From positions 15,200 to 79,199 of the forward strand of contig CALKQT010000034.1 of assembly GCA_937990735.1 (NCBI GenBank): a stretch of 64,000 bases of DNA. The letters run 5' to 3'. Shown here piece by piece: positions 4,037 through 49,957 of the stretch (position 1 is its first letter; every line of letters begins with the position of its first letter). The DNA comes from an uncultured Campylobacter sp. (GTDB lineage: Bacteria > Campylobacterota > Campylobacteria > Campylobacterales > Campylobacteraceae). Under the pieces are notes generated by a model. That model did not search any database and was not told the DNA's origin. It saw only the letters and a list, made by a program, of their open reading frames with translations. The translations under genes and the position numbers were made by a program.

Positions 4037-4046
4037 AGGAGAAAAA

Positions 4047-4262
4047 ATGGGTTCTATGAGTATTGGACACTGGCTGATTGTTTTGATCGTTGTTGTGTTG
4101 CTGTTCGGAGCGAAAAAAATCCCAGAGCTTGCAAAGGGTCTAGGACAGGGCATAAAGACTTTCAAAAAAGAGATGGAAGAGGACGACGAACCGCAAAAGG
4201 TCGAGAAAAAGATGGAACAAGAGGTTAAAGACGCCGAAATCAGCGATACTAAAAAGGCGTAA
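4047..4262 (+). CDS. tatA: Sec-independent (Tat) translocase protein TatA/E
   Basis: 71 aa. N-terminal TM helix followed by [21 protein letters not shown] amphipathic motif. RBS AAAGGAGA upstream. Confidence 0.85.
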
Positions 4263-4267
4263 AGGAT

Positions 4268-6104: not shown

Positions 6105-6420
6105 CGAACGAAATTTTATGATTTAAAATACAAAGCGAAATTTTACTTAAAATTTATAGCTATGAAATTTTAAAGCTAGTTCTAAATTTACGGCTCATAA
6201 AATTTCGATTTTAGAATTTTACGAGCGGTTTCGCGGCATTGCTACGGCGCTGTTCGTAAAATTTAAAATTTGGCTGCAAATTTACTGCTTGCGGAATTTC
6301 AAAATTTCAAAATTTTGCGGCGTGGAAGTTCGAAGTAAAATTTTAAAACAAGGCTTGAGGTACTAAAATTTTTGTGCAGATTAAATTTCATGCGACGAAA
6401 TTTAATTCGTAGAATTCTCC
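6105..6420. repeat. Intergenic RAATTY-rich short-period repeat block
   Basis: Dense AAATTT/GAATTT/AAATTC motifs (for example gcgaaattttac, ctatgaaatttta, cggaatttcaaaatttcaaaattttgcgg). No credible ORF. Confidence 0.7.
6141..6228 (+). repeat. Left copy of an approximately 90-bp dispersed direct repeat (partner at 7564..7653)
   Basis: ttttacttaaaatttatagctatgaaattttaaagctagttctaaatttacggct... aligns with ttttacttgaaattctatcgctatgaaattttaaggcttagttctaaatttagggct... The first 60 nt or so are nearly identical. Confidence 0.75.
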
Positions 6421-6486: not shown

Positions 6487-7269
6487 ATGAGAAAGATCAT
6501 CGATATAGCGGCGCTTTCGCTCGCCGTTTGCATCTTGGTTATAGTGCTTTTTTGGCCGTCGCCCGTTTTGTCGTTCAAATGCTACCGCGGCGATGGCGTA
6601 AGCTGCGCGCAGCTGGGGCGCGACAAGCTCTCCCGCGGAGATTACGACGGCGCCAAGCTTGCTCTTGCTAGGGCTTGCGAGGCGGGCGAGAAGGATAGCT
6701 GCTTTGATTTGGGGGCCCTATACGATGGCGAGGGTAATGCGACGCAAGCGGGCGTATTTTATGCCGCAGCGTGCGATAAAAACGTCGCCGTAGCCTGCCA
6801 CAAGCTAGGCAACCTATATCAGCGAGGGCGCCTGAGTAGGGACTTCTCTGCGGCAGCTCGGCACTATATCAAGGCTTGCGATTTGGGCTACACCAAGAGC
6901 TGCCACAATGCGGCCGTGGTCTATTTCACAGGCGGCTTTGGACTTGCGGCGGATCAAGCAAAGGCAGTGAGCTTTTTCGAGCGAGGTTGCGACGGCGGGC
7001 TAGTGGATAGCTGCTATAACGTCGGCGTTGCGTATGATAAGGGCCTAGGCGCGCCGCAGGATCGCGATAAGGCGGAGAAGCTTTACACCAAATCCTGCGA
7101 GCTGGGCTACGGCGACGCCTGCAATAATTTAGGCTATTTGTATGTGATCAAGGGGGATCTGCGCGGATTTTCCAAGGGGCTTGGATGGGTCAAAAAGGGC
7201 TGCGACGCGGGCAATAAAAAATCCTGCCAGATTTACGAATTCATGAAAGAGCAAATTTTAAAGAAGTAG
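6487..7269 (+). CDS. Sel1-like repeat (SLR) cysteine-rich protein, Hcp-like, with N-terminal signal/TM segment
   Basis: Repeated C-x(7,8)-C-x-x-LG-x-x-Y...G units (ACEAGEKDSCFDLGALY, ACDKNVAVACHKLGNLY, SCELGYGDACNNLGYLY). RBS AAGGA upstream. Confidence 0.8.
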   Translation: MRKIIDIAALSLAVCILVIVLFWPSPVLSFKCYRGDGVSCAQLGRDKLSRGDYDGAKLALARACEAGEKDSCFDLGALYDGEGNATQAGVFYAAACDKNVAVACHKLGNLYQRGRLSRDFSAAARHYIKACDLGYTKSCHNAAVVYFTGGFGLAADQAKAVSFFERGCDGGLVDSCYNVGVAYDKGLGAPQDRDKAEKLYTKSCELGYGDACNNLGYLYVIKGDLRGFSKGLGWVKKGCDAGNKKSCQIYEFMKEQILKK

Positions 7270-7563
7270 GTGCTCGGTAGCCCCGCTCATGTTTCGGTTT
7301 GTACTGCCTGCCGTGCGCCGTCTGTTTTGTATTGCTCGCCGTGTGCCGTCTGTCCGTATGGCGTCTATTGCGCTATCCGCCTTGCACCGCATATTTATAC
7401 TGCCCGTTGCGAGATATCGGTTTTGCGATGGCTTTTGCGATATTGCCGTGGCAGGATTTGTGAGCTTTCGTAGCGCGCGCAATTTCGCCGAGATTTTACG
7501 ACGTGCGAAATTCAGTAAGACGTAATAGCCAGTGCATGCGATTAGCCAAATTTAGCGGCGGAG

Positions 7564-7653
7564 TTTTACTTGAAATTCTATCGCTATGAAATTTTAAGGC
7601 TTAGTTCTAAATTTAGGGCTTGCAGAATCTCAACTTTAAAATTTTATGGGCGG
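7564..7653 (+). repeat. Right copy of the approximately 90-bp dispersed direct repeat (partner at 6141..6228)
   Basis: See the partner entry. Together the two copies bracket the Sel1-repeat gene in the same orientation. Confidence 0.75.
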
Positions 7654-7743
7654 CGCTGCAAGCAAGACAAAATTTAGATTTTAAAATTTTACGGCGCGGA
7701 ATTTAGCGCGGAAGTAAAGCGCGAAGCTGTTTGAGGAGGTAAA

Positions 7744-9784: not shown

Positions 9785-9990
9785 TTTTAACCTTTCTAAA
9801 TTTTATATCTATGAAATTCTGCCGCGATAAAATTCTGCTTTCTTAAAATTTTATCGAGATAAAATTCCGTAAGTCGGATTTAGAATTTTAAAATTCCATG
9901 CGCCACGAAATTTGCTGTAAATTCCGCCCCTTTAAATTTTGCGGCGTCAATCCTCGATGAAGCCCTGTAGAATTTTACCGCAAGTAAAAT
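9785..9990. repeat. Intergenic RAATTY-rich short-period repeat block
   Basis: ctatgaaattctgcc, gataaaattctgc, cttaaaatttta, gataaaattccg, tagaattttaaaattcc, cgaaatttgc, gtaaattccgcc, ttaaattttgcgg. Confidence 0.7.
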
Positions 9991-10920
9991 TTAGCCTACC
10001 AGCGCCTTTAGCTGCTCGGCGTTTAGCCCATCCACCAAAATATAGCTCGTATCGATGAAGCGGTAGTTTTGCTTCGGCAGGCGCGCGATAAAATCGTCGT
10101 ATTCCAGCTCGGCGATTGCATGGTAGTTATCGGCGTCGTTTTCGTCGCCCTCGATGCCTATGAGTGCGATCTGCCAGCGCGCGACGTCGTTATTTTTCAG
10201 CATCTCCGTGTTTTGCCATTCCACAAACGGTTTGTAAGGCAGGATAGTAGGTAGGTCTTGCGTGAGCGCGTATGAGCCCATTATCGTGCCGTCATCTCCA
10301 TTTCGATAAAACCTCTGGCGCGCGCTGTAAGCGTCGAGATACTGCACCTCGGTTAGCCGCTTGCTAAACTCGGCAGAGGGGTTGTATGAGGCTAAAATTT
10401 CATCCATCATCGCGCGGTTTATCGCAAAAGGCCTCTCTACTCCGTAGCAAAAATTTACCTCCGTATCGCCACTTAAGTGCTGATCTATCGAATGCAGTCC
10501 CGCCGATATATCGCGCTCGTAGTCGAATTCCTCTATCCTGTCGTGGGTGTAAATTTCGCCGTTTTCATCCGCGATCTCGCCCCCCAGCTGCTTAGATAGC
10601 GCCTGTAGATATGAGATTGCCAAAACCCAATCAAATACCGTCGCTGGCGTATTTATGCGCACGGCGTAGCTTTGCTGCTCCTCGTCATATCTTAGCTCCA
10701 TCCCGCGCCCGCTCTTGCCTCGCACGCCCAAGATCAAGCACTCCTGCTCGCTCAAAGGCGATTTTAAAAACGCCCTCTCGTCAAAGTCCTCGGCGCTCTC
10801 GTCTATGCCAAATACCGATAGATCGGGTAGGAGCTCCAATGCCTTGCCTACGCTCATGGCGTCCGAATAGCCCATAAATAGCGGGCGCTTTTTGTTTTTG
10901 ACGCGGAATTCTACGCTCAT
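9991..10920 (-). CDS. Hypothetical protein (309 aa), no recognisable catalytic motif
   Basis: Start chosen at MSVEFRV (cat at 10918..10920), preceded by AAAGGAGAAAACG. The longer ORF to 10995 lacks an RBS. Confidence 0.6.
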   Translation of the reverse strand: MSVEFRVKNKKRPLFMGYSDAMSVGKALELLPDLSVFGIDESAEDFDERAFLKSPLSEQECLILGVRGKSGRGMELRYDEEQQSYAVRINTPATVFDWVLAISYLQALSKQLGGEIADENGEIYTHDRIEEFDYERDISAGLHSIDQHLSGDTEVNFCYGVERPFAINRAMMDEILASYNPSAEFSKRLTEVQYLDAYSARQRFYRNGDDGTIMGSYALTQDLPTILPYKPFVEWQNTEMLKNNDVARWQIALIGIEGDENDADNYHAIAELEYDDFIARLPKQNYRFIDTSYILVDGLNAEQLKALVG

Positions 10921-11081
10921 CGTTTTCTCCTTTGTTAAATTGGCAAAATTATAGCGAAATTTTACCCGCCGCAGCGGGCTAAATTTGTAGCGCAAGGAGT
11001 TGCAAAAAGTAAGCTTAAAGCTTTTTGGAAGTAGAATTTAAGTGGGTCACACAGGCGGTAAATTTAATCAAAGGAGCGAAA

Positions 11082-11720
11082 ATGACGAAAGATCAATGCT
11101 GCGTCCTAAAGCATTTGACGGCGGGCGAGACGGGCGGTTTTGGGAAAACGGGCGAGATGAATGACGGGGAGTTTTTGAACGCGCTTACCGGAAAAGGGCT
11201 TGTTTGGATGCTTGACTGGGTCGGCGAGGACGAGACGGGAGAGCTGGGTAAATTTATCAGCTCTAGGCTTGATGCGCTGCAAAGTGGCGTGGCTCTAGAG
11301 TGCGATAAAATTTACGCAAGGCTCGAAAAAGAAGCAAAAAAAGAGGGTTTCGAGCGCGGCGATGCGAGCCTATTTTTGATGAACGAGTTTCAAAAGGCGC
11401 TGAAAAAGAGCGATTTTAGGCTCTTTACTTTGGACCTTCATAGCGACGCTTATTATCTGCTCGTCGCGCACAAGGACGCCGAGAAAGATTTTAAAAAGCT
11501 AGGCAAGCGCGAGGAGCTATTTTGGGATATCGCGCCGTGGGGCAAGCGCCGCAAAAGGCAGATCCTTTACGTCATAAACTGCGAGTGCGGCGAGATGTCT
11601 GCGTGGCAGCTGGATGCGGACGAGCCGTCGCCAAGAGACGAGGTTTGCGAGGTCTGCGGGCGGGTGCTTTTTGACGCAGACGGCAATGCGATGCAGCCTT
11701 TGGAGAAGGAATTTATCTGA
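11082..11720 (+). CDS. Hypothetical protein with C-terminal CxC...CxxC zinc-ribbon-like motif
   Basis: Start at MTKDQ, preceded by AAAGGAGCGAAA. C-terminus is INCECGEMSAW...EVCEVCGRVLFD. Confidence 0.55.
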   Translation: MTKDQCCVLKHLTAGETGGFGKTGEMNDGEFLNALTGKGLVWMLDWVGEDETGELGKFISSRLDALQSGVALECDKIYARLEKEAKKEGFERGDASLFLMNEFQKALKKSDFRLFTLDLHSDAYYLLVAHKDAEKDFKKLGKREELFWDIAPWGKRRKRQILYVINCECGEMSAWQLDADEPSPRDEVCEVCGRVLFDADGNAMQPLEKEFI

Positions 11721-14559: not shown

Positions 14560-15750
14560 TTGGCTAATACAAATCCACGCGGGCGCCGTAAAAAGCGCCA
14601 GATCAACTACGCAACGATCGCCTTTGTCGTAATCTTATGCTTTTTAAGCGGTGCGGTTACCTACGCGGTTTTGGATCTCGTATTTTCGGGCAATAAAGCC
14701 GCGTTGCAGCAAAGCTCGCGCAAACAAACTCCCGAGAGCCCTTCCGATTCTCGCGGTAAAAAGCCGCGTTTAAGCGCTGCACAGAAGGAAACTCTGATTC
14801 AAAAGGAGCTTGATAAGATCGCCGAGCAAAACGTAACCGCGCCTAAGATGAGCATCGAGCCCGCACGGCAGAATTCCGCAGGACAAAATTCTTCAAACGG
14901 CGATTCGCAAAATTCCGTAAATTCTATCGCTTCCTCAAATTCCGTCGCCGTAAATTCGGCAGGCGGCGGATCGGACGTAAATTTTACCGCGGCAAATTCC
15001 GCTTCAGAAAATTCCATAAATTCTACCGCGCAAAGCCACGCTTCTAGCGGCGCGGACGATCTTTCTAAATCGCCGCGCAAGGCTTTGCCCGCAGGCTCTC
15101 GCGCAAAGCTAGCGATCATCATCGACGACGTAGGTACCGGCGAGCAGGCGCAAAAGATTGCCGCGCTGCCCGTGCGAGTGACGCCATCCATCTTCCCGCC
15201 CGAGTATCAGCGCAAGGACACGCGCTCGCTCGCTCGCGGCTTTGAGCATTACGCGATCCACCTGCCGATGGAGGCGAGCTCTGCCAAAAATAATTCCGCG
15301 ACGCTGCGAGCTTCGGATAATTATGAAAAGCTGCAAGGCGTCATAGCGAAGCTACGCGCGGACTTTCCGAACGCTAAATTTATAAACAACCACACCGGTT
15401 CTAAATTTACCGCCGACGAGCGCGCGATGCAAAACCTACTGCGCGCGATGAACGAGCATGGATTTTTATTTATCGACTCGCGCACGAGCCCCGCTACCAA
15501 GGCTAAGGCGGCGATGAATGAGCTTGGCATGCGATACGTGCATCGCGATGTATTTTTGGATAATCAAAACAGCGTCGCCGCGGTGCGCAAAAAGCTGCGC
15601 GAAGCCGTCGCGCTTGCTAAAAAGCAGGGTTACGCCATCGCTATCGGCCATCCCAAAAGCTCCACTCTGCGCGCGCTTGCAAACAGCGCCGACATCCTAG
15701 GCGAGGTCGATTTAGTGTATTTGGACGAAATTTATGAGTACTACGAGTGA
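14560..15750 (+). CDS. Divergent polysaccharide deacetylase family protein (YibQ-like) with N-terminal TM anchor and low-complexity linker
   Basis: LAIIIDDVGTG...HLPMEA...INNHTGS...GHP motifs. TTG start. Confidence 0.75.
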   Translation: MANTNPRGRRKKRQINYATIAFVVILCFLSGAVTYAVLDLVFSGNKAALQQSSRKQTPESPSDSRGKKPRLSAAQKETLIQKELDKIAEQNVTAPKMSIEPARQNSAGQNSSNGDSQNSVNSIASSNSVAVNSAGGGSDVNFTAANSASENSINSTAQSHASSGADDLSKSPRKALPAGSRAKLAIIIDDVGTGEQAQKIAALPVRVTPSIFPPEYQRKDTRSLARGFEHYAIHLPMEASSAKNNSATLRASDNYEKLQGVIAKLRADFPNAKFINNHTGSKFTADERAMQNLLRAMNEHGFLFIDSRTSPATKAKAAMNELGMRYVHRDVFLDNQNSVAAVRKKLREAVALAKKQGYAIAIGHPKSSTLRALANSADILGEVDLVYLDEIYEYYE

Positions 15751-16522
15751 GCTCGGTTTTAAAATTCAAAGCCTAGCAAGGCTCGGTGCGAGCGAGCCCG
15801 CGCAGCTGTATTTTAGGGGCGAGCCGGCGCTACTGCAAAAGCGCCGCATCTCGATCGTGGGCTCGCGCAAGATGAGCGTTTATAGTAAAAATTTGATCCT
15901 GCGCCTTGCGCGCGCTTTGAGCGATGCGGACTTTTGCGTCGTAAGCGGCGCGGCGATCGGCTGCGACATAGCCGCGCACGAAGGGGCGTTTCCAAACACG
16001 ATTGCGGTTTTTGGAAACGGTCTTGATCAAATTTATCCCGCGCAAAACGCCACCATGATCGGCAAAATTTATGAGCGTAGCCTCGCGCTTAGCGAGTATG
16101 AGGACGGCGTGAGCGCGCGCGGATTTCAGTTTTTGCAGCGCAACCGCATCGTCGTGGCGCTGTCCGAAGCTCTGATTATCGCTCAAGCCGAGCCTCGCAG
16201 CGGCTCGCTGCAAAGCGCGCGCCTGGCTCGTGAGATGGGCGTGCCCGTGTACGTGCTGCCGCACCGAATGGACGAGAGCGCGGGCACGAATGATCTGCTC
16301 GCAAAATCTCAGGCGCGACTGATTGCGGATTTTGGCGAATTTGTCGCCTCTTTGGCTCCGCAGACGCCGCAAAACACTGAGCGCGCACGGGATGAGGTGA
16401 TGGAATTTTTAGCGCTAAATTCCGATCTGCAAGCGGCGATCGAGCGCTTCGGAGATAAAATTTACGAATACGAGCTTGAAGGCAGGATCGAAATTTTAGG
16501 CGCAAAGATAGTGGCAAAATAG
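15734..16522 (+). CDS. dprA: DNA processing protein DprA (Smf)
   Basis: IVGSRKMS.Y......L...L......VVSGAAIGCDIAAHEGA Rossmann-like DprA core. Overlaps the upstream gene by 17 nt. Confidence 0.85.
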   Translation: MSTTSELGFKIQSLARLGASEPAQLYFRGEPALLQKRRISIVGSRKMSVYSKNLILRLARALSDADFCVVSGAAIGCDIAAHEGAFPNTIAVFGNGLDQIYPAQNATMIGKIYERSLALSEYEDGVSARGFQFLQRNRIVVALSEALIIAQAEPRSGSLQSARLAREMGVPVYVLPHRMDESAGTNDLLAKSQARLIADFGEFVASLAPQTPQNTERARDEVMEFLALNSDLQAAIERFGDKIYEYELEGRIEILGAKIVAK

Positions 16523-16721
16523 CTGATGAGCGGCGTTTGCTCGCTATGACTTGTGCACCGCCGCTCGCCGGTACGGCTTGTTTGCACGGCGCGTAATCTG
16601 CGCAGTCGGTGTTTAAATTTAGAAAAAAAGCGGCTCGGTAAAATTTTACCTTCCGCAAGTAGCACTTGAGCTTAAAATAAACCCGCGCGGCTTGCCGAAG
16701 CTGAATTAAAAAGGATGAAAT

Positions 16722-19423: not shown

Positions 19424-20067
19424 ATGGCAGGGCTAGCTAGATAATACCGGCGAGATCGAAATTAGTATAGAAATTTTGCGGAGCTTTATGGGATTTTATG
19501 AAATTCTGTGGAATTTTATTTCTAAATTTTATTGCTGAAATTCCGCATATTGCGATAATATCGATAGATAGTGGTTTTAAAATTTCAGTATTTTGGAAGT
19601 TTAGAATTTAATCTATGCTGGGGATTTTATTGACATAATTTTAATTTGTCATAGACTTACCCATCGCGATATAGGGATTTCATCATAATCATGGTGCTAA
19701 ATTATATATCGTTGAAGGAGAAAAAAATTGCGCAAACTAGCGAGTAGCTATGCAATCACAGCTGATATGGCGAAAATATCCGAAGAAGATCGCACGAGGT
19801 AATCAATCTGCGAAGTAAGTAAAATCAATTATCAAGTGGATGGAATCTATCAATAAACAAGTAAAATTATTCATCGCAAAGCAAGCAAAATCGATCTGTA
19901 AATGGGCAGATCAAGCTTAAAACTAACTCGAAGTAGCCTGTAAATAAACCAAATTGTAAGCAAGATAAATTTTAAGTAGGCATATTGTAAGAAAGTAAAA
20001 TTTTAGATGAGATAAGTGGGATAAATCGATTTCAAATCACCGTAGAAGTTGGATGAGGATTTTAATT

Positions 20068-26554: not shown

Positions 26555-27110
26555 CTAGCGGAGCTCGGCGTAAAATTCCATGCAAAAATTCGACCGCTAA
26601 ATTTTAAAATTTTACGTAAAATTCCGCGCGGGCTAGGTCGTCGTAAAATCGCATGAAATTTTATAGCGGCAAAACACGGCGCCAAAAACAGGGGCGCAAT
26701 TTCAAATCAAAATTTGCGCACCGTTAGTGTAAATATAGAGCCAATTTTGTAGCGTTAAATTCTTTTTAGCGCATAGGTGCTGAAAATTTTAAACTAAAAT
26801 TTGCGCTAGACTGCAACGCCGTATGTTTTAGCCGCGATAAAATTCTGTGAAATTTTATCTCCGCAGCCGTTTATAAATTTCAAGTCTAAATTTTATATTT
26901 GCGCCCTGACGGCGCCATATTTTAGCCGCGTAGAATTTTGCCGCATAAAATACTGCCTAACAAAATTCTGCTGCGTAGATTTCAATTCACCGCGCTCAAA
27001 TTTTATCCGCCGCTCTGAAATTTATACCGCCGCGTCTAAATTTCTCCAGCCCGCCGCGCTTTACCGAAATTTATATTTAGTTGTTGTAAAATGCGTTTTT
27101 AAAAGGATTT
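26555..27110. repeat. Intergenic RAATTY-rich short-period repeat block (about 0.55 kb)
   Basis: No credible ORF. At the 3' end, AATT occurs at 26934, 26964, 26984, 26999, 27019, 27039 and 27068, mostly 15-20 bp apart, separated by GC-rich spacers (ccgccgc...). Confidence 0.75.
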
Positions 27111-29999: not shown

Positions 30000-30325
30000 T
30001 GAAAGCTTTTATCGATTGCGACTGCGAAATTTTGCAAAGGACGCTGGAGCTGTTTTTGAAGGATCGCGCTACAAGTGCGCAGGATTGCGACTTTGTGATA
30101 AGCGATGAGCCACAAAGCTCGGCAAAACCGCTATTTTTGATCGGCGAGGGCGGAGATCTGACGCTACCGTTTTCAAAGAGTGCCTTGCTATCGAAGCTGG
30201 AGGATTTTCAAGGCTCGCTAAAGCGGGATTTTAGCGAATATGACGCGGCGGAAGAGGAAATTTGCGCTCTATTTGATGAGTTTAAGGCAAGAATCATCGA
30301 AATTTTAAGAAGGCAAAATGGCTAA
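29996..30325 (+). CDS. Hypothetical protein (109 aa)
   Basis: ORF translationally coupled on both sides (ATGA overlap upstream, 8-nt overlap downstream). No recognisable motif. Confidence 0.5.
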   Translation: MMKAFIDCDCEILQRTLELFLKDRATSAQDCDFVISDEPQSSAKPLFLIGEGGDLTLPFSKSALLSKLEDFQGSLKRDFSEYDAAEEEICALFDEFKARIIEILRRQNG

Positions 30326-31775
30326 ATTTTCCAAACCCGCCGGCGCGCTCTTTACGCAAATCTCAAGCGGCATTTATAGGGGCAAAAAGCTCGCTCTGCC
30401 CGCGTTTTCGAGTACGCGCAGCACGAAAAGCATCGTAAAGGGCTCGTTTTTCGATACTTGGCGGGCGGAGTTGCGCGGCGCGGCGTTTATCGAGTGCTTC
30501 GGCGGTAGCGGCGCGATGGCGCTTGAAGCGCTAAGTAACGGCGCAAAAAACGTTTATGCGATCGAAAAGGATGTCGCCGCGCATAAGATAATGCGGAAAA
30601 ATTTCGAGTTTTTTGGGCTCGGCGCAAACGCGATTTTGGGTGATTGTTTCGAGCGACTACCCGAAATTTTGCACGAGCTGCAAGCGGATATGAACGGACG
30701 CTCGGGCGCGAATTCGCTAAATTTAAGCGGCAAAAATTTAGACAAAAACCATGCCGCCACCTACCGCAAAAATTTAGACGGCGAAAAAGACGGCTGTCGC
30801 AAAAGCTTTAGTGGCGTAGAGCAGGGCGAGAACCCATACTGCGGCACGCAAAGCGTAGAAGTGGAAGACGGCACGCAAAGCGGCGTGAAAGATTTTGCAA
30901 AATGCGGTACGCAAAACAGCGTGTCTTACGGCACGCAAAATGGCGCGCAGGGCGGCGCAAATGATGATTGCGCAGGCGAGGGTTTTGGCGATTGTGCCCA
31001 GATTAACGATTATGCGGGCGCTTCTAGTATAAAATATCGTGCGAATTCGCTAACTACGGATGCCGCGAGCTTTGGCGAAAAGGTTGACGATAACTGCGCT
31101 TCTCAATACGACGCGAGCGGCACCGAGACCGCTAATTGCAACTTAAATTTAAGCTCAAAATGCAGCGAGAGCTCTAATTTTGACGCAAATCGCGGTGCGG
31201 GCTTAGGCGCGAGCTGCGAAGAGAAAGAAATCTTAAATTTAGGCGAAAATTTTGATTCTAGCTGCAGAAAAAGTTTACATTCAAGCGCAAATTTCGTCTA
31301 TGATTCAAGAAAAAATTCCACTGCGAATTCTGACGGCAATTTTGGCGCTAGTTGCGAAGAAAATTCGCGCCCAAACGTAAATTTAACCCGTGGTTCAGGA
31401 AAAAATTTCGCCACCAACTCCCGTGAAAATTTAGCATGCGGTTTAGGCGAAAGCTCTACCGCAAACGATTTAGGCAAATGTTCTGCTGCAAATTCTAGCG
31501 AAAGCCATACCGTAAATTCTAGTGAAAATTCCGTCTCCGATCCCGCGCGCAGAGTGTTTGTCTATCTAGATCCGCCGTTTGCGATCAGGCAGGGCTTTGG
31601 CGAGATTTACGAGCGGGTGCTGGCGCTGATAGCGCGCCTAGGCTCCGTGCGGTGCGAGCTGCCAATCGCGATCGAGCATATGAGCGAGCTTGAGCTGCCG
31701 CCTAAAATCGGCGATTTCGCGCTGCTTAAATCGCGCAAATTCGGCGCTACGACGATGAGCTACTACGTAAAATGA
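30318..31775 (+). CDS. rsmD: RsmD-family 16S rRNA (guanine-N2)-methyltransferase split by an in-frame low-complexity insertion of about 288 aa
   Basis: N-terminal 121 aa (GIYRGKKL..P....TRST...VKGS.F, motif I ECFGGSGAMALEALS) and C-terminal 76 aa (motif IV VYLDPPF) together make a normal RsmD of about 197 aa. Confidence 0.7.
   Translation: MAKFSKPAGALFTQISSGIYRGKKLALPAFSSTRSTKSIVKGSFFDTWRAELRGAAFIECFGGSGAMALEALSNGAKNVYAIEKDVAAHKIMRKNFEFFGLGANAILGDCFERLPEILHELQADMNGRSGANSLNLSGKNLDKNHAATYRKNLDGEKDGCRKSFSGVEQGENPYCGTQSVEVEDGTQSGVKDFAKCGTQNSVSYGTQNGAQGGANDDCAGEGFGDCAQINDYAGASSIKYRANSLTTDAASFGEKVDDNCASQYDASGTETANCNLNLSSKCSESSNFDANRGAGLGASCEEKEILNLGENFDSSCRKSLHSSANFVYDSRKNSTANSDGNFGASCEENSRPNVNLTRGSGKNFATNSRENLACGLGESSTANDLGKCSAANSSESHTVNSSENSVSDPARRVFVYLDPPFAIRQGFGEIYERVLALIARLGSVRCELPIAIEHMSELELPPKIGDFALLKSRKFGATTMSYYVK
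30681..31544. repeat. Low-complexity, AATT-rich coding insertion inside rsmD
   Basis: Asn-[LSFC]-rich translation (NSLNLSGKNLDKN, NFDANRG, NFGASCEEN, NSSESHTVNSSENS). Internal repeats CGTQS/DGTQS/CGTQN/YGTQN and GASCEE(K/N). Confidence 0.65.
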
Positions 31776-32564: not shown

Positions 32565-33060
32565 GCGGAATTTTACCTAACACGAGCTATGAAATTTTAT
32601 GAAGCTTTAGTGCGGGTGTGTGACGGAATTTTGCGCTGTTTTGCTACCGCATAAGTAGGGCCGGCTTTATGGATTTTGCCGTACGCCTTGAGTGCGGCGC
32701 GCCGAAATTTTATAGAATTTTGGTAAAAGATCACTTCATAAATTTCTGCAAATTTCACGGATAGATGCGCGAAATTTATAGGGCTATCTTGTAGAATTTG
32801 GGTAAAATTCCACAGCCTTGTGTTATTAAAATTTTATGAAATTTTGCAGCTCGCGCACGACGCGATAAATTGCATGGAGCTAAAACGGCAATCGCGCGGT
32901 AAATTTCATAAAATTTAAGCAGGAGCCGTGCGGCAAAATCCGATATAATTCCGTGGAATTTTATAAAATTGCATGGAATTCTAGCAGGCGCTCGTATGCA
33001 CTTTGCGGTGCATGAGCGGTTTGCGATCGTAATTGCGCGGAATTCTGGCAGGCGTTCATA
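32565..33060. repeat. Intergenic RAATTY-rich short-period repeat block (about 0.5 kb)
   Basis: gctatgaaatttta, acggaattttgcgc, ccgaaatttta, tagaattttgg, cataaatttctgc, gcaaatttcacgg, gcgaaatttata, gtagaatttggg, gtaaaattcc and so on. Confidence 0.7.
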
Positions 33061-35444: not shown

Positions 35445-35694
35445 CGCTAAATTTAGATCACTAGAACTCTGCCGGTTCGCGTTTACGGTTAAAATTTGGA
35501 CGCGGGCTGCTCGAAATTTTAAACGGCTAGCTTTGGTTTTGAAGCTGCGCGCTTTTAAATTTAGATTTTCAAAGCCGCGCCAAATGCTCGCGGGTTTATG
35601 CAAACAGTGCGTCTGGTGCGCTAAGGCATTAAAATTTCTCACTCAAAATGGGATAAAAATAATAGAAAAACTTATTCAAAAATCTAAAAATATC

Positions 35695-36386
35695 ATGGCC
35701 GTGGGGCGCAGCGACATAGAGCCCGCATGGATCGCGCAGGCGCAGCGGCGGCTCAGTTTCGCACTGCCTGCGAGCTACAAGCAGATGCTGCTAAGATACG
35801 CTAGCGTCAGCGCGGCGGAGACGGAGCTAAAAATGATCGCGCCGCCCGAGTTTGCGGATAGTGCCGACGCCGACATCTGTTACACGTATGAGATAAATCT
35901 CAAAAATGGGCTATTTGCCGCGGACGAACTCGTGTTTTTGCAGCTCGAGGACGAGGAGTATTATTTTAAAATTTTGCCCGCAGGCGATGGCGGCGGTATA
36001 ACGGACGGCTCGCCAAACACGGCGCGCGGCAAGACGGCGGAGAGTACGAGCGGCAAAGCTGCGAGCGAGACAGTGCGCGATACGGTCGTCGCGACGGTAA
36101 CCGACGGTGCGAAAAATAGGGCGCCTGGCGACGAAGCGCGCGCGGAGAGATCGCCGATGTGGCGCGCAATATGAATGCAGAAGCGTCAGATGAAACGACG
36201 TGTAAAACAGCGGGCGCAACAACAAGCGAGGCGGCAGACGACGCAGCAAGTGGAGCGACGAAAAAGATAGCGAGCGAGCGGGTAGACGACGCGCCGTGCG
36301 AATACAAAGTCTATGTGCGCGACTACGCGGAGGGCGAGGATAGGCTTTTTGCGGACGATTTTTGCGGGTTTTTGGAAAAATTTTAA
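35695..36386 (+). pseudogene. SMI1/KNR4 (SUKH-1)-like protein gene, interrupted by a low-complexity segment and a frameshift
   Basis: N-terminal part has AQAQRRLSFALPASYKQMLLRY (SUKH-like i..aE..L...LP..Y...L). The C-terminal part (EYKVYVRDYAEGEDRLFADDFCGFLEKF) is in another frame (36159 ORF, open only from 36120). The frame switch must therefore lie in 36120..36174. The start codon is uncertain. Confidence 0.5.
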
Positions 36387-36418
36387 GACGAAATTTAAGG
36401 CAAAATCAGGAGCGACAA

Positions 36419-37435
36419 ATGGGACTGTTTGGCATTTTTAAAAAGGATCAATTTGACGTCGATGTGCGCCAGGACGGCATTTTCATAGGCGGCGTAAACT
36501 GCGAGTTTGATCTAGCTAAGCTTAACGAAGCCTTGGGACAGCCGCGCGTGATCAATGACGGAGAGGGCAAAAGCCGCTATTTTTGGGATGAGGCGGGGAT
36601 TTTCGCCTTCGTGCGCACAGGCGAGCCCGCAGAACCGAAGCTTACCGAGATAATTTTGATGCTTGAGGTCGCAAAGGGCGTGCAGCACGAGGTTCCGCGC
36701 AAGCTCTACGGCGGCGCATTCACGCTTGAGGGCAGACCGCCGCTTGAGGCCGTGCCTGAGCAGGAGCTGCGCGGCGCATATATATTTTTGGGGCTTAGCC
36801 TAGGCAAGTTCGAAGTCTCGCTAGCTCTCGCCGATGCCGTGCAGGAGCGCATAGGCGCGATGGACTTTGCCGAGCGCTTCGCTAAGCGCGACACCGACGA
36901 GATTGCAGATATCGTGCGAGCTGCGAAAATGCCGATAGGGCGCGTCTGCATCAATCAAAAGACAAAAAAGGTAAAGCGCAAGCCGAGCGATAAATTTAAG
37001 CTTCCGCGCGCGGCCGGCGAGACGCTAGCGTTTAAAAATTTCAATTTCAAAATCGCCGTGATGAACGAGCTGATGTATGAAAAATCCCTGCTACAGCCCA
37101 AATTTGACGTGTTTGAGTACTGCGAGGAGCGCGGCATCGATCCGTATGCAGATTTTGGCGCCCTACCGCAAGCCAAAAAGTGGTTTAAGGACTATCCGGT
37201 CCCCGCAAATTTGGCGGAGCAGGTGAGCGAGCTCTATCTTGACGGCGGAAATGAAATTTATCTGCAAATCGCGCCTGATTGGGACGGCGAGGATGAGCTT
37301 TTCGATATCAAAAACATTGACGCCGCCGAGCTTGCGCAATTCAAAAACCTTAAGAAAATCGAAACGACCGGCATCGACATATCTAAAAAGGCGCGAAAAG
37401 CCTGCGCAGATGCGGGGATCACGGTAGTTGATTGA
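36419..37435 (+). CDS. Hypothetical two-domain protein, immunity-protein-like (function unknown)
   Basis: Start at MGLFGIF, preceded by AGGAGCGACAA. C-terminal region YLDGGNEIYLQIAPDWDGEDELFDI. No enzymatic motif. Confidence 0.55.
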   Translation: MGLFGIFKKDQFDVDVRQDGIFIGGVNCEFDLAKLNEALGQPRVINDGEGKSRYFWDEAGIFAFVRTGEPAEPKLTEIILMLEVAKGVQHEVPRKLYGGAFTLEGRPPLEAVPEQELRGAYIFLGLSLGKFEVSLALADAVQERIGAMDFAERFAKRDTDEIADIVRAAKMPIGRVCINQKTKKVKRKPSDKFKLPRAAGETLAFKNFNFKIAVMNELMYEKSLLQPKFDVFEYCEERGIDPYADFGALPQAKKWFKDYPVPANLAEQVSELYLDGGNEIYLQIAPDWDGEDELFDIKNIDAAELAQFKNLKKIETTGIDISKKARKACADAGITVVD

Positions 37436-42614: not shown

Positions 42615-43010
42615 CGGGCTAGAGTTTTTAAAGCATTTATGCGGCTTACGTTACGGCTTAAGCGCGAAATTTTGTCTAAAGTTACGGCGCAAAATTTTGC
42701 CTAGATTTACAGCATAAAATTTTTATCAAGAGCTTGGTTTTAGAATTCCATCCCGAATTTCGTTTAGGATTTCGTCTAAAATTTTAACTTATATAAAATT
42801 TGGGTTTGTGATCTCGTTTAAAATTTTAACGCGTAATTCGCTTTTGGATTTTATCCGCTATCCTAAAACGCAAAGCTTTGGAATTTTAAATTTAGCGGCA
42901 GGCTATGGAATTTAAAATTTTAAATCAAGCTGGAATTTTATGGGTTGCAATGGAATTTAAAATTTTGGATCGAACGAAATTTTACGTATCGGAATTTTTA
43001 AAATTTAAGA
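42615..43010. repeat. Intergenic RAATTY-rich short-period repeat block
   Basis: gcgaaattttgtc, gcaaaattttgcc, cataaaattttta, ttagaattccatcccgaatttcg, ctaaaattttaac, tatggaatttaaaattttaaatc, ctggaattttatgg, aatggaatttaaaattttgg. Confidence 0.7.
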
Positions 43011-43074: not shown

Positions 43075-43938
43075 TTAGTCTTTCTTTTTCATATCGTATT
43101 TATTGACCATAAATCCGACCAAGCCTACGAAAAATAGACCGCCGCAGATGTTGCCTAGCGTAACCGGGATCATATTTTTAACGATGAAATTTCCCCAGTT
43201 TATTGAATCTATTTGAGCCGCTGTTACGCCGTGAAGCGAGCTTGCAAGAGCATTTACATCGCCACCCGCAGCCGCAAGGTAGTGGCCTTTAGCGATGATG
43301 CCTTCAGTTAGGATAAACATATTTGCCACGCAGTGTTCCATCGAGCAAGCTACGAATGCGCCGATCATCCACATAATTGCAAAGAATTTACCCGATAGAT
43401 TGCTCTCGCTGGTCGCAGTCCAGATAGACATACATACAAACACGTTACAAAAAATTCCGCGAATGAATAGCTCATGAAAAGGTGCGTTTATTTTGCCGGC
43501 TGCCGCAGGAATGAAGTGTTGCAAGATGTAGCCGTCATATTTAAGCGGAAGTCCTGAGTAATAATACATATACGCGATTAACGCGCCGCCTACGAAGTTA
43601 AAGCACCAAACGATAGCCCAATAGCCGATAGTTTTACCTAGCGGTAATTTGCCGTCGGCAGCAGGTACGCCCGTTAAAACCGAGCTAGTAAATAGATGCC
43701 CACCGTAAAAAACCACCATCATCAGACCGCAGCTAAAGGTAATACCGCCGATGAAATTCGATAAGCCAATAGATTGCTTTTCAGCCATTCCGACGGTCGA
43801 GTGAGCCCAGAAAATATCGCCCATAGCGATTGCAGCGCCCGCCATTATAGCTAGAAAAATTATGCTAATTAGCGGGGTATGCGCCTTGTGTTGCATCGAA
43901 CTAGACACCGCTTGCGCGGTTTCTGCAGGATTTAACAT
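43075..43938 (-). CDS. focA: Formate/nitrite transporter family channel (formate channel FocA-like)
   Basis: 287 aa, six TM segments. FNT signatures (GG.LFTS, central His in SMEHCVANMF). RBS GAGGAGGAG. Directly follows hycI. Confidence 0.9.
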   Translation of the reverse strand: MLNPAETAQAVSSSMQHKAHTPLISIIFLAIMAGAAIAMGDIFWAHSTVGMAEKQSIGLSNFIGGITFSCGLMMVVFYGGHLFTSSVLTGVPAADGKLPLGKTIGYWAIVWCFNFVGGALIAYMYYYSGLPLKYDGYILQHFIPAAAGKINAPFHELFIRGIFCNVFVCMSIWTATSESNLSGKFFAIMWMIGAFVACSMEHCVANMFILTEGIIAKGHYLAAAGGDVNALASSLHGVTAAQIDSINWGNFIVKNMIPVTLGNICGGLFFVGLVGFMVNKYDMKKKD

Positions 43939-44394
43939 TTACTCCTCCTCATTTAAATTTGAATCAATTTCTAAGATACGCTCATAAGCTTTTTGCGCAC
44001 TTTTTTTTGCGCTCTCGCTTAGTCCTTCTTTAAAATCAAGGACATTATCGAGCAGGACGCTTATGCCCAAAAACAATGTCTTTGGGCAAATTTTGCGCAA
44101 ATAGCTTAGAAGCACCGGCGTAGGTAGGTTATGCGTCGAGTATATGTAGTCGCGATCGTTGCTGAGGTCGAAAAATTCTATCTTATCCTCATCAAAGCCG
44201 CTCATTGCATCTACTACGATCAGAATTTCAGGGGCGAATTCCCTAAGGGCAGCAAATTCGTTTTCGGGCACATCCTGCCCATAAAAAACGCGCCAGTCTT
44301 TTAGATTCGCCTCGACTATTCGCCCCGTTTCATTGCCCACGTCATCGTCGCCACGAAGGGGATTGCCGATACAAAGCAACGCCTTTCGCATCAA
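43939..44394 (-). CDS. hycI: Hydrogenase 3/4 large-subunit maturation endopeptidase HycI
   Basis: LLCIGNPLRGDDDVG...P.ILIVVDA...STHNLP aligns with the E. coli HycI pattern (LLCVGNSMMGDDGAG...LLIVDA...TTHNMP). Confidence 0.85.
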   Translation of the reverse strand: MMRKALLCIGNPLRGDDDVGNETGRIVEANLKDWRVFYGQDVPENEFAALREFAPEILIVVDAMSGFDEDKIEFFDLSNDRDYIYSTHNLPTPVLLSYLRKICPKTLFLGISVLLDNVLDFKEGLSESAKKSAQKAYERILEIDSNLNEEE

Positions 44395-44735
44395 AAATCC
44401 TTCCTTAGCACGAAGTATCCTTCGCGCATATTTTTTAGCAGATCTTTAAGCTCACATTCGCAAAGCTGAGGGATTAGCTTAGCTGCGTGCTCGGCAAAAA
44501 TTTCAATCTCGAAATACTTGCTTAGGTTACCGATCTTAAATTTAACGTAGTCGCCCGAGTTTTCGATGATGCGTTTAAATTCTTCATCGTCTATTTCAAG
44601 CACCTTTTCGCTAAAATCTATCGTACCTACGCCGTGACCGACGCAGGTGGAAAAAACCTTGATATCCTTTAGCTCTTTAGGTAGATTTTCGTTTTCATCC
44701 ATATGCCGCTTTGTAAGCTTAAAAACCTCAATCAT
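44391..44735 (-). CDS. hycH: Formate hydrogenlyase maturation protein HycH/HyfJ-like
   Basis: KLTKRHMDENENLP and VFSTCVGHGVGTIDF resemble E. coli HycH QLSRKFIDENDATP and YYSLAIGHHLGVIDC. Position between hyfI and hycI. Confidence 0.65.
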   Translation of the reverse strand: MIEVFKLTKRHMDENENLPKELKDIKVFSTCVGHGVGTIDFSEKVLEIDDEEFKRIIENSGDYVKFKIGNLSKYFEIEIFAEHAAKLIPQLCECELKDLLKNMREGYFVLRKDF

Positions 44736-45556
44736 CGTTTGCTCCAGACCTCTTTTTGCGGATCGATTTTAAATTCCTCCGTAGCGCGGGCATATTTTAG
44801 ATACACGTCATTGTGTAATAGCGCCATGCACTCCGCGTATCTAGGATCCTCTTCGGTATGGATAGCGTTAAGTAGAGCCTCGCGAGAAGCTTTTGGATCG
44901 TGAACGTCAGATGAGGTTTTGATCGCATCCATATATTTTGCAAATAAAACTCTTCCGAAAATATAGCTCATCAGCCTCTTAGCTTCAGCTTGCAGATCGC
45001 GCTCGAATAAAATATCGCCGATAACTGAACTCTTAACTGGTGGCGGAAGAGTACTATCTTGCTCGTAGCTCTTCTTTTGAAGCTTTTGATCAATAATGCC
45101 AAGCGCCATGCCAAGACCATAGATGATGCTAGCAGGATGCGGAGGGCAGCCGGGGATATAAACATCTACCGGTACAATCTTATCGATGCCGCTCCATACG
45201 CTATATGCGTCGTGAAAAATTCCGCCAGTACTTCCGCAGGCTCCCAGAGCCACTACGATCTTTGGATCAGGTGCAGCCTCATAAGCGCGAAGCAGCGGAT
45301 AATACATCTGGCGAGTAACCGGACCGGTGCAGACTAAGATATCTGCGTGGCGAGGGTTGGCTACGAGTTTAAATCCGAAGCGCTCCGGATCCCACATCGG
45401 CGTGATAGAAGCAAAAATTTCGATTTCACAGCCGTTGCAACTTCCGCAGTCGATACGATAAACGCTGAAGCTTCGTTTGATATTTTTCAAAAGCTCCAAT
45501 TTTGCGGTTAGATCGTTTGCGTTTTTAATATTTTCGGGGACTTGATACAAACTCAT
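44732..45556 (-). CDS. hyfI: Hydrogenase-4/FHL small subunit (NuoB-like) HyfI/HycG
   Basis: CGSCNGCEIE, GACGSTGG, IPGCPP cluster-N2-type motifs. Start at MSLYQV (cat at 45554..45556) with GGAGGCAATAAA upstream and an ATGA overlap with hyfH. Confidence 0.9.
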   Translation of the reverse strand: MSLYQVPENIKNANDLTAKLELLKNIKRSFSVYRIDCGSCNGCEIEIFASITPMWDPERFGFKLVANPRHADILVCTGPVTRQMYYPLLRAYEAAPDPKIVVALGACGSTGGIFHDAYSVWSGIDKIVPVDVYIPGCPPHPASIIYGLGMALGIIDQKLQKKSYEQDSTLPPPVKSSVIGDILFERDLQAEAKRLMSYIFGRVLFAKYMDAIKTSSDVHDPKASREALLNAIHTEEDPRYAECMALLHNDVYLKYARATEEFKIDPQKEVWSKR

Positions 45557-46092
45557 TTTATTGCCTCCTCTATACCTTTGGTCATTCTCTCGACCGCTTG
45601 AGCTTTTTTGCATTCAGGACAGATATAGAGATATTTTTTAGCTTCTTCTAATCTGCCTGGGAGCAAATTTGCAGTACTTAGCTTTTCTAGCGTGTAATTG
45701 ATGAGCCTTTTTGGGGTCATCGGCTTGCCGCAGCAGCTGCATTTCTCCATCTCAAGCTCGCCGTGTTGGATAAGCGCGCTTTTATCAAATTTTACCGCTA
45801 ACTCAAAGCTATTGCCTAGCCTTACTGCTCCCGTAGGGCATACCTCGTCGCAGCGACCGCAAAATATGCAGCGTCCGCAGTCAAATTCCCAAATTAGTTT
45901 AGTTTGGGCTTCGTTCATCTTAAGCTCGATCGCATTGGATGGGCAGGCGATACCACATGCAGCACAGCCTATGCAAAGCTCGTAGGTGTATTCAGGTTGC
46001 CCACGAAAATTCTCGGGCACGATGTATGGCTCAAACGGATAAGCATAGGTCGCCTTACCATATTTTTCGGTAATGTCGAATAATTTCATCAT
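45553..46092 (-). CDS. hyfH: Hydrogenase-4/FHL 2x[4Fe-4S] ferredoxin subunit (NuoI-like) HyfH/HycF
   Basis: CIGCAACGIACP and CIFCGRCDEVCP motifs. Confidence 0.9.
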   Translation of the reverse strand: MMKLFDITEKYGKATYAYPFEPYIVPENFRGQPEYTYELCIGCAACGIACPSNAIELKMNEAQTKLIWEFDCGRCIFCGRCDEVCPTGAVRLGNSFELAVKFDKSALIQHGELEMEKCSCCGKPMTPKRLINYTLEKLSTANLLPGRLEEAKKYLYICPECKKAQAVERMTKGIEEAIK

Positions 46093-47825
46093 CTTAAATC
46101 CTTTTTGCTAACCTTGCCGTCTTGGCAAAATTTCTTAAGGTCTTTTTCGGTTAGAATTTTACTCTTTCCGCTATTAATATCGACTAAAGTTACGCGCTCA
46201 GTGCATGAGTAGCACGGATCCATCGAGCATACGATTAGCGCCGCATCGGAGATGTTATTTCCGCGGAATTGAAATCGTAAGCTCGGCCAGTTGTTATACG
46301 TAGCGGCGCGACATCTCCAGCGGTAAACCTTCTGTGCGTTTCCTTGCATGATCCAGTGGACGTTTTCGCCTCGCGGCGCTTCGTCGTGACCTAAAGCGTA
46401 GTTTTCCGGTCTGATCATAGTCTGTGGATCGATCATTATCGGAGTTTGCGGCATTTGATGCAAGCACTGCCTGATGATGTGGATCGATTGTTTAAGCTCT
46501 TTATATCTTACGACTTCGCGGCTGAATACATCGCCACCGTGCTCTACGGCTACTTCGAATTCTATCTTGTTGAAGAAATCATAAGGGTGATCGTAGCGAT
46601 TGTCGCGTTTAAAACCGGAAGCTCTCATATTTGGACCTACCGGGCTAAAATCACGCGCCACTTTGCGATCTAATACGCCCACACCCTTCCAGCGACCGAT
46701 TTGGCGTTTATCCTCCATAACGGCGTCCCAAATTTCAGAAATTTGAACATCAAGTTTATTGATGATCTCGATGCTCTTGCGAATTTCATTGTCGGTCATA
46801 TCACGGCGAAGTCCGCCCATAATTACATTGCCGTAAGTCTTGCGGCCGCCGGTTACGAGCTGAGCTAGCTCCATAGAATACTCGCGCACCCTAAAGATAT
46901 GCATGAAGGCGTTGTAGTTACCTGTTACCTCGCAGGCTAGACCGATATTTAAAAGATGGCTGTGAAGACGCTCGATCTCAAGGCAGATTACGCGGATAGC
47001 TTGCGCACGAAGCGGAATTTCAAGCTTGATGGCTTTCTCTGCTGCTTCAATACACGCAATCGCATGAGCGTAGCCGCAAATTCCGCAGACGCGCTCTGCT
47101 AAATAGCCCATCTGATCGTAATTCATTCGGTTTTCAGCTAGTTTCTCCATACCGCGGTGTTGATAAAATAAGCGGTAGTCTGCATCGATAATCTCATCGC
47201 CATCGCAAAATAGTCTGAAGTGTCCCGGCTCATCGCTCGTTACGTGAAGAGGTCCAAGTGGAACATCTACTACGCCGTCGCCGCTAGGAAATAAAAACTC
47301 TGCATTAGGCTCGTCTTTATGATCTACAGGATCAGGCCTATAGCGATAGTCCATTGCGTCTTTGCGAAGTGGATGAAGCCCATCTGGCCAATCGTCGCTT
47401 AACACCAAACGGCGTTTATCAGGCAAGCCCTCAGCGATTAAGCCGAACATATCGAAAGCTTCTCTTTCGTACCATACGCAAGCAGGCACTAAAGGAGTAA
47501 CTGACGGGAATGTAGGATCCGATCCGGGAATTAGCGTCCTAACGGTGATGAAGCATTTATCCTCTGCGGCGAAATCCTCCGCTTCGGTCATTTTGCCACC
47601 TTCCATAGATATCGCATAGTAAAGCGCGAAATTTCCGTTTAGCTCGCGCTCATCGTTAGGGATCATCGTGCTGATAAAACCGCCGACGTCATAATATAGC
47701 GTCTTAACCGCAAGCGGTAGATCATTTCTATCCACTAAAACGGTGATTTGATCCTCGGCTTGGCGGGTAACTTCTAAGACCTTGACTTTGGTCTTTAAAA
47801 TTTCTATAAATTTATCGCCTCTCAT
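46089..47825 (-). CDS. hyfG: [NiFe] hydrogenase-4/FHL large subunit (NuoC-NuoD fusion) HyfG/HycE
   Basis: N-terminal Ni-binding RVCGICGYAH and C-terminal DPCYSCTER, followed by a 34-aa extension of the kind removed by HycI. Confidence 0.95.
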   Translation of the reverse strand: MRGDKFIEILKTKVKVLEVTRQAEDQITVLVDRNDLPLAVKTLYYDVGGFISTMIPNDERELNGNFALYYAISMEGGKMTEAEDFAAEDKCFITVRTLIPGSDPTFPSVTPLVPACVWYEREAFDMFGLIAEGLPDKRRLVLSDDWPDGLHPLRKDAMDYRYRPDPVDHKDEPNAEFLFPSGDGVVDVPLGPLHVTSDEPGHFRLFCDGDEIIDADYRLFYQHRGMEKLAENRMNYDQMGYLAERVCGICGYAHAIACIEAAEKAIKLEIPLRAQAIRVICLEIERLHSHLLNIGLACEVTGNYNAFMHIFRVREYSMELAQLVTGGRKTYGNVIMGGLRRDMTDNEIRKSIEIINKLDVQISEIWDAVMEDKRQIGRWKGVGVLDRKVARDFSPVGPNMRASGFKRDNRYDHPYDFFNKIEFEVAVEHGGDVFSREVVRYKELKQSIHIIRQCLHQMPQTPIMIDPQTMIRPENYALGHDEAPRGENVHWIMQGNAQKVYRWRCRAATYNNWPSLRFQFRGNNISDAALIVCSMDPCYSCTERVTLVDINSGKSKILTEKDLKKFCQDGKVSKKDLR

Positions 47826-47827
47826 TT

Positions 47828-49956: not shown

Positions 49957-49957
49957 C

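Follow-up and report, generated by a model that had tools for sequence, protein, structure and literature searches.

RAATTY over-representation in an uncultured Campylobacter: a candidate methylation and uptake mark

Several spacers in the DNA of an uncultured Campylobacter are crowded with the degenerate palindrome RAATTY (R, purine; Y, pyrimidine), and the question is why. The stretch concerned is 64 kb long and is here called the window. An initial annotation, made from the letters of the sequence, listed nine such blocks in it, one of them at positions 26555-27110, and put forward two ideas: A-tract-like cores phased at about two helical turns could give intrinsically bent DNA, of use in nucleoid or promoter architecture, or RAATTY, the hexamer methylated by CtsM in Campylobacter jejuni, could mark the DNA as self for natural transformation. 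The analysis described here finds RAATTY to be over-represented throughout the genome at the level of DNA, most conspicuously in the blocks. What the sequence suggests is a ‘self’ mark spread densely over the genome, and neither curved promoter DNA nor a mobile repeat.

RAATTY in genes and in spacers

The window contains 644 RAATTY sites (10.1/kb), 8.6 times the mononucleotide expectation and 3.4 times the expectation of an order-2 Markov model, so that the density is indeed above what base composition predicts. AAATTT is the most frequent hexamer (391 copies, 19 times expectation), against 152 copies of its isomer TTTAAA, and RAATTY accounts for 81% of the AATT tetramers, where 25-37% would be expected. 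The 18 kb of flanking DNA from the same species is alike, with 10.4-11.0 sites/kb, AAATTT as top hexamer and 84-88% of AATT in RAATTY. Genes were called by a greedy open reading frame (ORF) rule, which gives 58 genes and 79% coding DNA; the density is 7.0/kb within genes and 21/kb outside them. When synonymous codons are shuffled inside each gene, so that protein and codon usage are kept, 153 genic sites are predicted and 353 are seen (2.3-fold, z = 20.5). These are spread evenly over the three reading frames (115, 120 and 118 in frames 0, 1 and 2, against 83, 25 and 46 in the shuffle). A coding or codon-usage effect would leave the frames unequal. The bias acts at the DNA level, is genome-wide and is strong inside genes too, which the initial annotation had missed.

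The enrichment is confined to a sharply defined word. Only the four RAATTY words of the 16 NAATTN are enriched, and the other twelve are mostly depleted. In genes, relative to the synonymous shuffle, AAATTT stands at 3.2 times expectation (z = 23), AAATTC at 2.1, GAATTT at 1.6 and GAATTC at 1.1, while the non-RAATTY words are mostly at 0.1-0.5 (AAATTG 0.36, AAATTA 0.46, CAATTT 0.50, GAATTG 0.09). In non-coding DNA, for which the null was the order-2 Markov model (order-3 was also run), each RAATTY word is enriched 2.7- to 3.4-fold and the remaining twelve lie at 0-0.8. The A4T4 word AAAATTTT has 61 copies, where its 7-mers predict about 62, and AAAAAA/TTTTTT is at expectation in genes and at 0.16 times expectation in spacers. 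No consensus longer than the hexamer was found, the flanks showing a weak T-A...T-A preference only. The enriched unit is exactly RAATTY, and its R...Y rule coincides with the specificity published for the Campylobacter methyltransferase M.CjeNI/CtsM (PMC3526280, PMC4889913). The proposal that RAATTY, and not a generic A-tract, is the relevant unit of a self or uptake mark agrees well with the sequence, by enrichment restricted to R...Y words, the limit at the hexamer, independence of frame and restriction to the genus (see below).

Outside the nine blocks the window has 8.4 sites/kb; within them the figure is 24-57. RAATTY hexamers occupy 15-34% of the bases of the blocks and A/T runs of at least 5 nucleotides 35-57%, with about one core per 24 bp, so the blocks are dense as described, but to say that they consist largely of such cores is something of an overstatement. 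The AATT spacings of 30, 20, 15, 20, 20 and 29 bp reported at 26934-27068 are exact; the 20-bp spacings are in part due to a 19-bp tandem repeat (Table 1). The block at 26555-27110 contains no ORF above 67 aa and no Rfam match beyond one at chance level (E = 0.17). Its fold z-score of -2.25 is expected from the self-complementarity of AAATTT, and the absence of a match at gathering score and of strongly non-random folding speaks against a structured non-coding RNA. Across the 64-kb window, too, no tRNA genes and no Rfam families at gathering score were found. Gaps of at least 100 bp with no RAATTY at all number two, at 4037-4267 and 36175-36361, and the first of these is a 71-aa TatA/B/E gene that is called on a matching metagenome contig.

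The phasing proposed for the blocks found weak support. Distances between RAATTY pairs in spacers have a modest period of 10-10.5 bp, reached by none of 500 random placements both in the blocks and in all gaps, and the postulated period of 20-21 bp is absent from all tests of periodicity of the RAATTY and AT signal. In gaps, a weak signal at 10.5-11 bp is seen for AA/TT (z about 3, with dinucleotide shuffles as the null) and A+T (W) content shows no more; inside the blocks, the periodicity of both is weak or absent by the same comparison. A spectrum of AATT centres against dinucleotide shuffles was set aside, as shuffling reduces the number of sites. The promoter role did not hold up either. 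The density is 19/kb in convergent gaps, 24/kb in tandem gaps and 25/kb in divergent gaps, and since these are alike the blocks are not specifically promoter DNA. The 100 bp upstream of gene starts carry 16-17/kb, and the blocks are not confined to upstream regions that bear promoters.

Table 1. Positions of the RAATTY-rich blocks and of related features in the window
Feature	Position	Strand	Remarks
Window-wide RAATTY over-representation	1-64000		644 sites; AAATTT top hexamer; 81% of AATT in RAATTY
RAATTY block	6105-6420		18 sites (57/kb)
RAATTY block	7545-7705		8 sites (50/kb); partner in 139-bp duplication
RAATTY block	9785-9990		11 sites (53/kb); within 1081-bp convergent gap
dprA	15734-16522	+	Natural-transformation gene; PF02481, E = 6e-53
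Indel site	16694-16710		Between dprA and ruvX; relative L003 has an extra 652-bp RAATTY-rich block, the window does not
RAATTY block	19460-19620		7 sites (43.5/kb)
RAATTY block	26555-27110		Spacer flanked by a hydrolase gene and a gene of the Gly_transporter family; 20 sites (36/kb); 40% GC
Tandem repeat	26989-27043		19 bp x 2.8 copies, unit ACCGCCGCTCTAAATTTTAT; within 26555-27110
Low-complexity insert	30648-31547	+	About 290 aa, rich in N, S, G, A and C; splits RsmD-like gene
RAATTY block	32565-33060		17 sites (34/kb)
RAATTY block	42615-43010		18 sites (45.5/kb); convergent gap; 25-bp tandem unit x 2.5 copies
RAATTY block	58860-59337		23 sites (48/kb); convergent gap
RAATTY block	63390-63720		8 sites (24/kb), lowest density of the nine

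Distribution in the genus and turnover of site-rich DNA

The window has a GC content of 48% and contains tsf, gmk, argS, proC, ilvC, dprA, ruvX, mgtE, argD and a formate-hydrogenlyase cluster. Campylobacter gracilis has an ArgD 98% identical to the one encoded here, the proteins returned by a search for ArgD homologues were all 97-100% identical, and proteins identical to those of the window occur on human oral metagenome contigs of uncultured Campylobacter sp. By these matches the source is a C. gracilis-like oral bacterium. The initial annotation was right to place dprA in the window, and its presence shows that a competence pathway is encoded at least in part, the remaining machinery lying beyond the DNA analysed.

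For comparison between species, the synonymous-shuffle test was applied to loci around ilvC from public genomes, among the matches listed. The set comprised six Campylobacter loci, with the named genomes of C. gracilis, C. rectus, C. showae and C. curvus lying outside it, and 11 outgroup loci from Sulfurospirillum, Arcobacter, Helicobacteraceae and beta- and gamma-proteobacteria. The excess is 2.31-fold in the window, 2.60-fold in its flank, 2.63-fold in C. concisus and 2.94-fold in an uncultured Campylobacter of about 38% GC. Among Campylobacter of lower GC it is 1.51- and 1.25-fold at two loci and 1.31-fold in C. jejuni (z = 5), with z = 4-6 for these three. An excess was found at all six Campylobacter loci and at none of the 11 outgroup loci (0.67-1.21), so it is specific to the genus in this sample. 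The density is mostly 7-10/kb in Campylobacter from 28% to 50% GC, with one uncultured locus at 5.5/kb, against 1.4-4/kb in other Campylobacterota at similar GC. The share of AATT lying in RAATTY ranges from 43% in C. jejuni to 92% in C. concisus.

Mobile DNA is poorer in the signature. The plasmids pCCON31 and pCCON16 of C. concisus 13826 have an observed/expected ratio (o/e) of 2.1-2.3 and 54-64% of AATT in RAATTY, against 4.4 and 92% at the chromosomal locus, so in this host the bias is weaker in mobile or recently acquired DNA. The genome of C. jejuni is about 1.64 Mb in size. With that figure, the 27,280 RAATTY motif instances published for both strands come to 8.3 sites/kb, and the phages have 3-4/kb (PMC4889913). 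Prophages of C. fetus are depleted of RAATTY (PMC13436318), and in C. jejuni, C. coli and C. fetus the motif is universally methylated to N6-methyladenine (m6A) (PMC10046745, PMC8437040, PMC13436318).

The initial annotation also held that the spacers are unusually long for a Campylobacter and are actively expanding, and both points are supported. Under a uniform ORF rule the coding density is 79% in the window and 67% in L003, a 10.7-kb locus from a close relative (91-94% identical), while the loci of C. concisus, C. jejuni and two further Campylobacter reach 91-95%. Every 10 kb of the window has 2.5 gaps of at least 300 bp, where those four loci have 0.5-1.0, and the longest spacers (0.6-1.1 kb) lie between convergent genes. 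Two features of Table 1 also speak for expansion. The extra block that L003 has next to dprA (L003:5396-6047) carries 30.7 RAATTY/kb and no ORF above 76 codons, and no second copy of it was found in about 150 kb of DNA from this and related species. The RsmD-like 16S rRNA methyltransferase gene (30318-31775, plus strand, 485 aa) has two conserved halves held apart by its insert, which contains most of the RAATTY sites of the gene. Nineteen of the 22 sites in the gene fall in one codon phase (xxR AAT TYx, encoding Asn-Phe/Leu), and the remaining two frames hold 19-21 stops. The insert is a RAATTY block of the intergenic type that has been kept open in frame.

Existing sites are also preserved. 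Compared with L003, 5.3% of A/T bases within non-coding RAATTY differ (16 of 300), against 12.8% outside (186 of 1455), and at third codon positions A/T differences are 7.4% within RAATTY and 16.3% outside it. The sites thus diverge about half as fast as neighbouring A/T bases. In shared genes, C. concisus has an orthologous site for 7 of 13 and C. jejuni for 4 of 23, these being small numbers. Since 20-57 sites/kb in non-coding DNA and the lineage-specific RAATTY-rich DNA exceed any plausible ancestral density, sites must be made and not merely retained. Taken together, the data show a RAATTY-specific, frame-blind and genus-restricted process that both makes and preserves sites.

Some other observations on the composition of the window may be recorded here. 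No other part of the window has so small a RAATTY excess (o/e 2.6-5 in most genes) as the formate-hydrogenlyase/hydrogenase-4-like cluster at 43075-53467 (minus strand; HycI, HycH, Oxidored_q6, Complex1 49/30 kDa and antiporter-like subunits), whose GC is also lower; the cluster may have been acquired later, or the coding constraint on membrane proteins may be stronger. Two clusters of immunity-protein-like accessory genes, at 9991-11720 and 35533-37435 (DUF4299, DUF6630, SUKH_5-like and DUF6892/DUF7738), are still near normal at 4.7-7.2/kb. Several 6-bp palindromes are nearly absent from genes by the synonymous shuffle (observed/expected GTATAC 0/5.9, GTCGAC 0/7.0, TGTACA 0/5.8, ACATGT 0/3.9, ACTAGT 0/3.6, CCATGG 1/8.3, AGATCT 8/26, TGGCCA 3/14), which looks like restriction avoidance. 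AAGCTT (53/21, z = 7) and CGATCG (41/24) are enriched in genes.

What could make and keep the sites

In C. jejuni, CtsM-methylated RAATTY licenses DNA for uptake (PMC10046745, PMC8437040). As CtsM methylation is the one known reader of RAATTY in the genus, the reading we favour, with a probability of about 45%, is that RAATTY is a CtsM-type methylation and uptake self-mark that has accumulated through biased uptake, the methyltransferase being supplied by analogy with C. jejuni. An orphan CtsM-type N6-adenine methyltransferase would methylate the sites at their third base, as in C. jejuni, and the competence machinery would prefer DNA with methylated RAATTY, fragments richer in sites being taken up and recombined more often. 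Changes that create sites would spread and AATT in near-cognate contexts would be converted or lost, in a manner like the molecular drive at DNA uptake sequences. Such a bias would keep RAATTY at roughly 7-11/kb throughout the genus, independent of GC, and in the C. gracilis lineage it would go with non-coding segments rich in RAATTY being gained, lost and locally duplicated. With the weak phasing at 10-10.5 bp, neighbouring sites would lie on one face of the helix, as would suit a protein reader, with some incidental curvature. A more sweeping version, in which a genus-wide signal for methylation-gated uptake or self-recognition has been driven, like a DNA uptake sequence, to about one site per 100 bp at any GC, has converted nearly every AATT to RAATTY in the C. 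concisus and C. gracilis lineages and has built new non-coding DNA and in-frame inserts in the latter, we regard as rather doubtful.

A number of points weigh against the favoured reading. No DNA methyltransferase gene was found in 83 kb (the window and 19 kb of flanks), in a search that used no CtsM-specific query. GAATTC, although a RAATTY site, is not enriched in genes (20 observed, 18 expected). Dependence of uptake on methylation has been demonstrated in C. jejuni only (PMC8437040), a species nearly the weakest in RAATTY enrichment. One methylated site is reported to suffice for a fragment to be taken up, which leaves no obvious need for selection towards about 10 sites/kb. Finally, the gradient of amelioration and the lower divergence of sites are also expected under a host-specific mutation bias, and the R...Y rule can also be stated as the lack of a flexible pyrimidine-purine (YpR) step beside AATT, which makes a structural reader possible. 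A route to ctsM through M.RsrI (residues 46-270, rebuilt from a PDB alignment, as query) was tried and rejected: it retrieved P0214 (364 aa, AT-rich) and ten other proteins, all unrelated PF01555 enzymes and none from Campylobacter. Prokka names the RAATTY enzyme of C. coli ‘FokIM_2’ (PMC4687069), from which a D12-class enzyme is inferred, and M.RsrI would then be of the wrong family for such a search.

The structural reader just mentioned leads to an alternative that we consider unlikely, though worth keeping in view: that RAATTY, which is mostly A3T3 and has no adjacent YpR, owes its excess to selection for a rigid element, narrow in the minor groove, that bends DNA or binds a nucleoid-associated protein, phased spacer copies organizing the chromosome and methylation being irrelevant. 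Hagerman is said to have found in 1986 that AnTn bends DNA whereas TnAn does not, a rule that fits the preponderance of AAATTT over TTTAAA, and the helical period of spacer sites and the AA/TT signal in gaps point the same way. So does the periodic signal that takes the place of a -35 box at RpoD promoters of C. jejuni (Petersen 2003, as cited in PMC3353397). The details fit poorly, however. A4T4 is at its 7-mer expectation and longer A-tracts are not favoured, given that AAAAAA/TTTTTT is unenriched; AAATTC is enriched and AAATTG depleted, a difference in the outermost base that fits the known enzyme specificity; the periodicity is modest and the W content of the blocks aperiodic against dinucleotide shuffles; the density is equal in convergent gaps and the genic excess equally strong; and the phylogenetic limit matches the distribution of RAATTY methylation. 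The same promoter signal from C. jejuni, spelled AAATTT in a GC-rich genome, could in principle be all that the blocks represent, and the 100 bp before gene starts are somewhat raised in RAATTY. This is very improbable: convergent gaps, which need no promoter, are as dense and include the longest spacers, the bias is equally present in genes, and sigma-70-like matches in the block at 26555-27110 number 2 against 1.6 in shuffles. Promoter and terminator signals in that block were likewise no more frequent than in shuffles, and it was dropped as a candidate for either.

About as unlikely as selection for DNA shape is a neutral origin, in which a lineage-specific, context-dependent bias of mutation or repair makes or preserves RAATTY and erodes other AATT as GC rises, the motif itself being functionless; possible causes are protection of m6A sites or a very-short-patch-like repair tied to the methyltransferase. 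Much of the evidence sits well with this. The excess climbs with GC within the genus, from 1.3-fold at 28% to 2.3-2.9-fold at 38-50%, the sites diverge at about half the background rate, plasmids have a weaker signature, half or so of the shared-gene sites are orthologous with C. concisus, and an order-3 Markov model accounts for most of the non-coding excess (RAATTY words 1.1-1.4-fold). What such an origin does not readily explain is DNA beyond any plausible ancestral density, whether the 20-57/kb of the spacers, the 652-bp indel block or the insert in the RsmD-like gene, or the few sites held in common with C. jejuni; to our knowledge, moreover, no very-short-patch-like repair system acts on m6A. 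The least probable of the explanations, to the point that it hardly competes, makes the blocks copies of a mobile or repeated element, such as a miniature inverted-repeat transposable element (MITE) or a repetitive extragenic palindrome (REP). The segments 6135-6271 and 7558-7689, which flank a Sel1-repeat gene at 6487-7269, share 75% identity along 139 bp, relatives differ by the presence of a whole block, and there are many micro-duplications: 44 small tandem duplications occur in the window, many of them of 2-3 copies, and roughly half have RAATTY in the unit (consensus units being judged by eye). The pair at 6135-6271 and 7558-7689 is nevertheless the only clear homology between spacers in the window. 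All-against-all BLAST of the gaps gave weak low-complexity matches and no family, the 652-bp block is single-copy in the DNA searched, no terminal inverted repeats were found, and the inverted repeats in the block at 26555-27110 are AT-rich words that match at 72-92%. The blocks are unique sequence and do not form a set of alignable copies with fixed ends.

Known systems and implications

The closest parallel is the CtsM (M.CjeNI, Cj0208) system of C. jejuni itself, in the same genus and with the identical hexamer, degenerate R and Y flanks included. It shares a density of about 8-10 sites/kb, the presence of dprA and the relative poverty of mobile DNA in sites. The two differ in that the C. 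jejuni system is known from its methyltransferase, methylation and uptake, the present one from a pattern in sequence. The excess is also larger here (2.3- against 1.3-fold by synonymous shuffle, and 81-92% against 43% of AATT in RAATTY), and no account of the C. jejuni system in the literature searched presents its motif as one driven to over-representation. Outside the genus, Akkermansia muciniphila also methylates RAATTY and is not known to use it in uptake.

DNA uptake sequences (DUS) of Neisseria and uptake signal sequences (USS) of Pasteurellaceae offer a second comparison. They too are short lineage-specific motifs in excess in non-coding DNA and in all frames of genes, as RAATTY is, and weaker in recently acquired DNA, and their accumulation through a bias in uptake is the model proposed for them and the standard explanation. 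They are, however, specific words of 9-12 bp, a length RAATTY does not reach, at about 1/kb and read by a receptor, whereas RAATTY is a degenerate 6-bp palindrome at about 10/kb whose specificity would come via methylation and for which no receptor is known. HIP1 of cyanobacteria (GCGATCGC) is likewise a short palindrome hugely over-represented throughout genomes. It overlaps methyltransferase sites and, according to the abstract of a recent preprint, raises natural transformation in a manner dependent on homology and methylation (bioRxiv 10.1101/2024.09.10.611283). HIP1 is a fixed 8-mer of another phylum and density, unlike RAATTY, which is degenerate and AT-rich in a GC-richer background. 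With phased A-tract DNA and the periodic RpoD signal of C. jejuni (Petersen et al. 2003), the spacers have in common AnTn cores, a spacing of about 10-10.5 bp and a non-coding location; they differ in their weak phasing, in having no tie to promoter gaps, in not favouring longer A-tracts and in the enrichment of the same word in genes.

In the full-text literature on AAATTT and RAATTY in Campylobacter, no paper was found on the over-representation or its gradient within the genus, only papers on methylomes and transformation. As a signature, RAATTY at 10/kb with about 48% GC and more than 80% of AATT would provide a sharp marker for the binning of such organisms from metagenomes, and methyl-enrichment based on ApoI/XapI could recover them from oral samples. 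If the favoured reading is true, the size of the excess in different species should go with the presence of ctsM and competence genes and should be lower in prophages and plasmids, which can be tested from genomes. RAATTY would then be the first case of a degenerate 6-bp methylation site, in place of a long word, with the genomic footprint of a DNA uptake signal. Such a reading also offers a reason why genomes of the C. gracilis type have so unusually low a coding density, and methylation-gated transformation would extend beyond C. jejuni to the oral and human-hosted members of Campylobacter.

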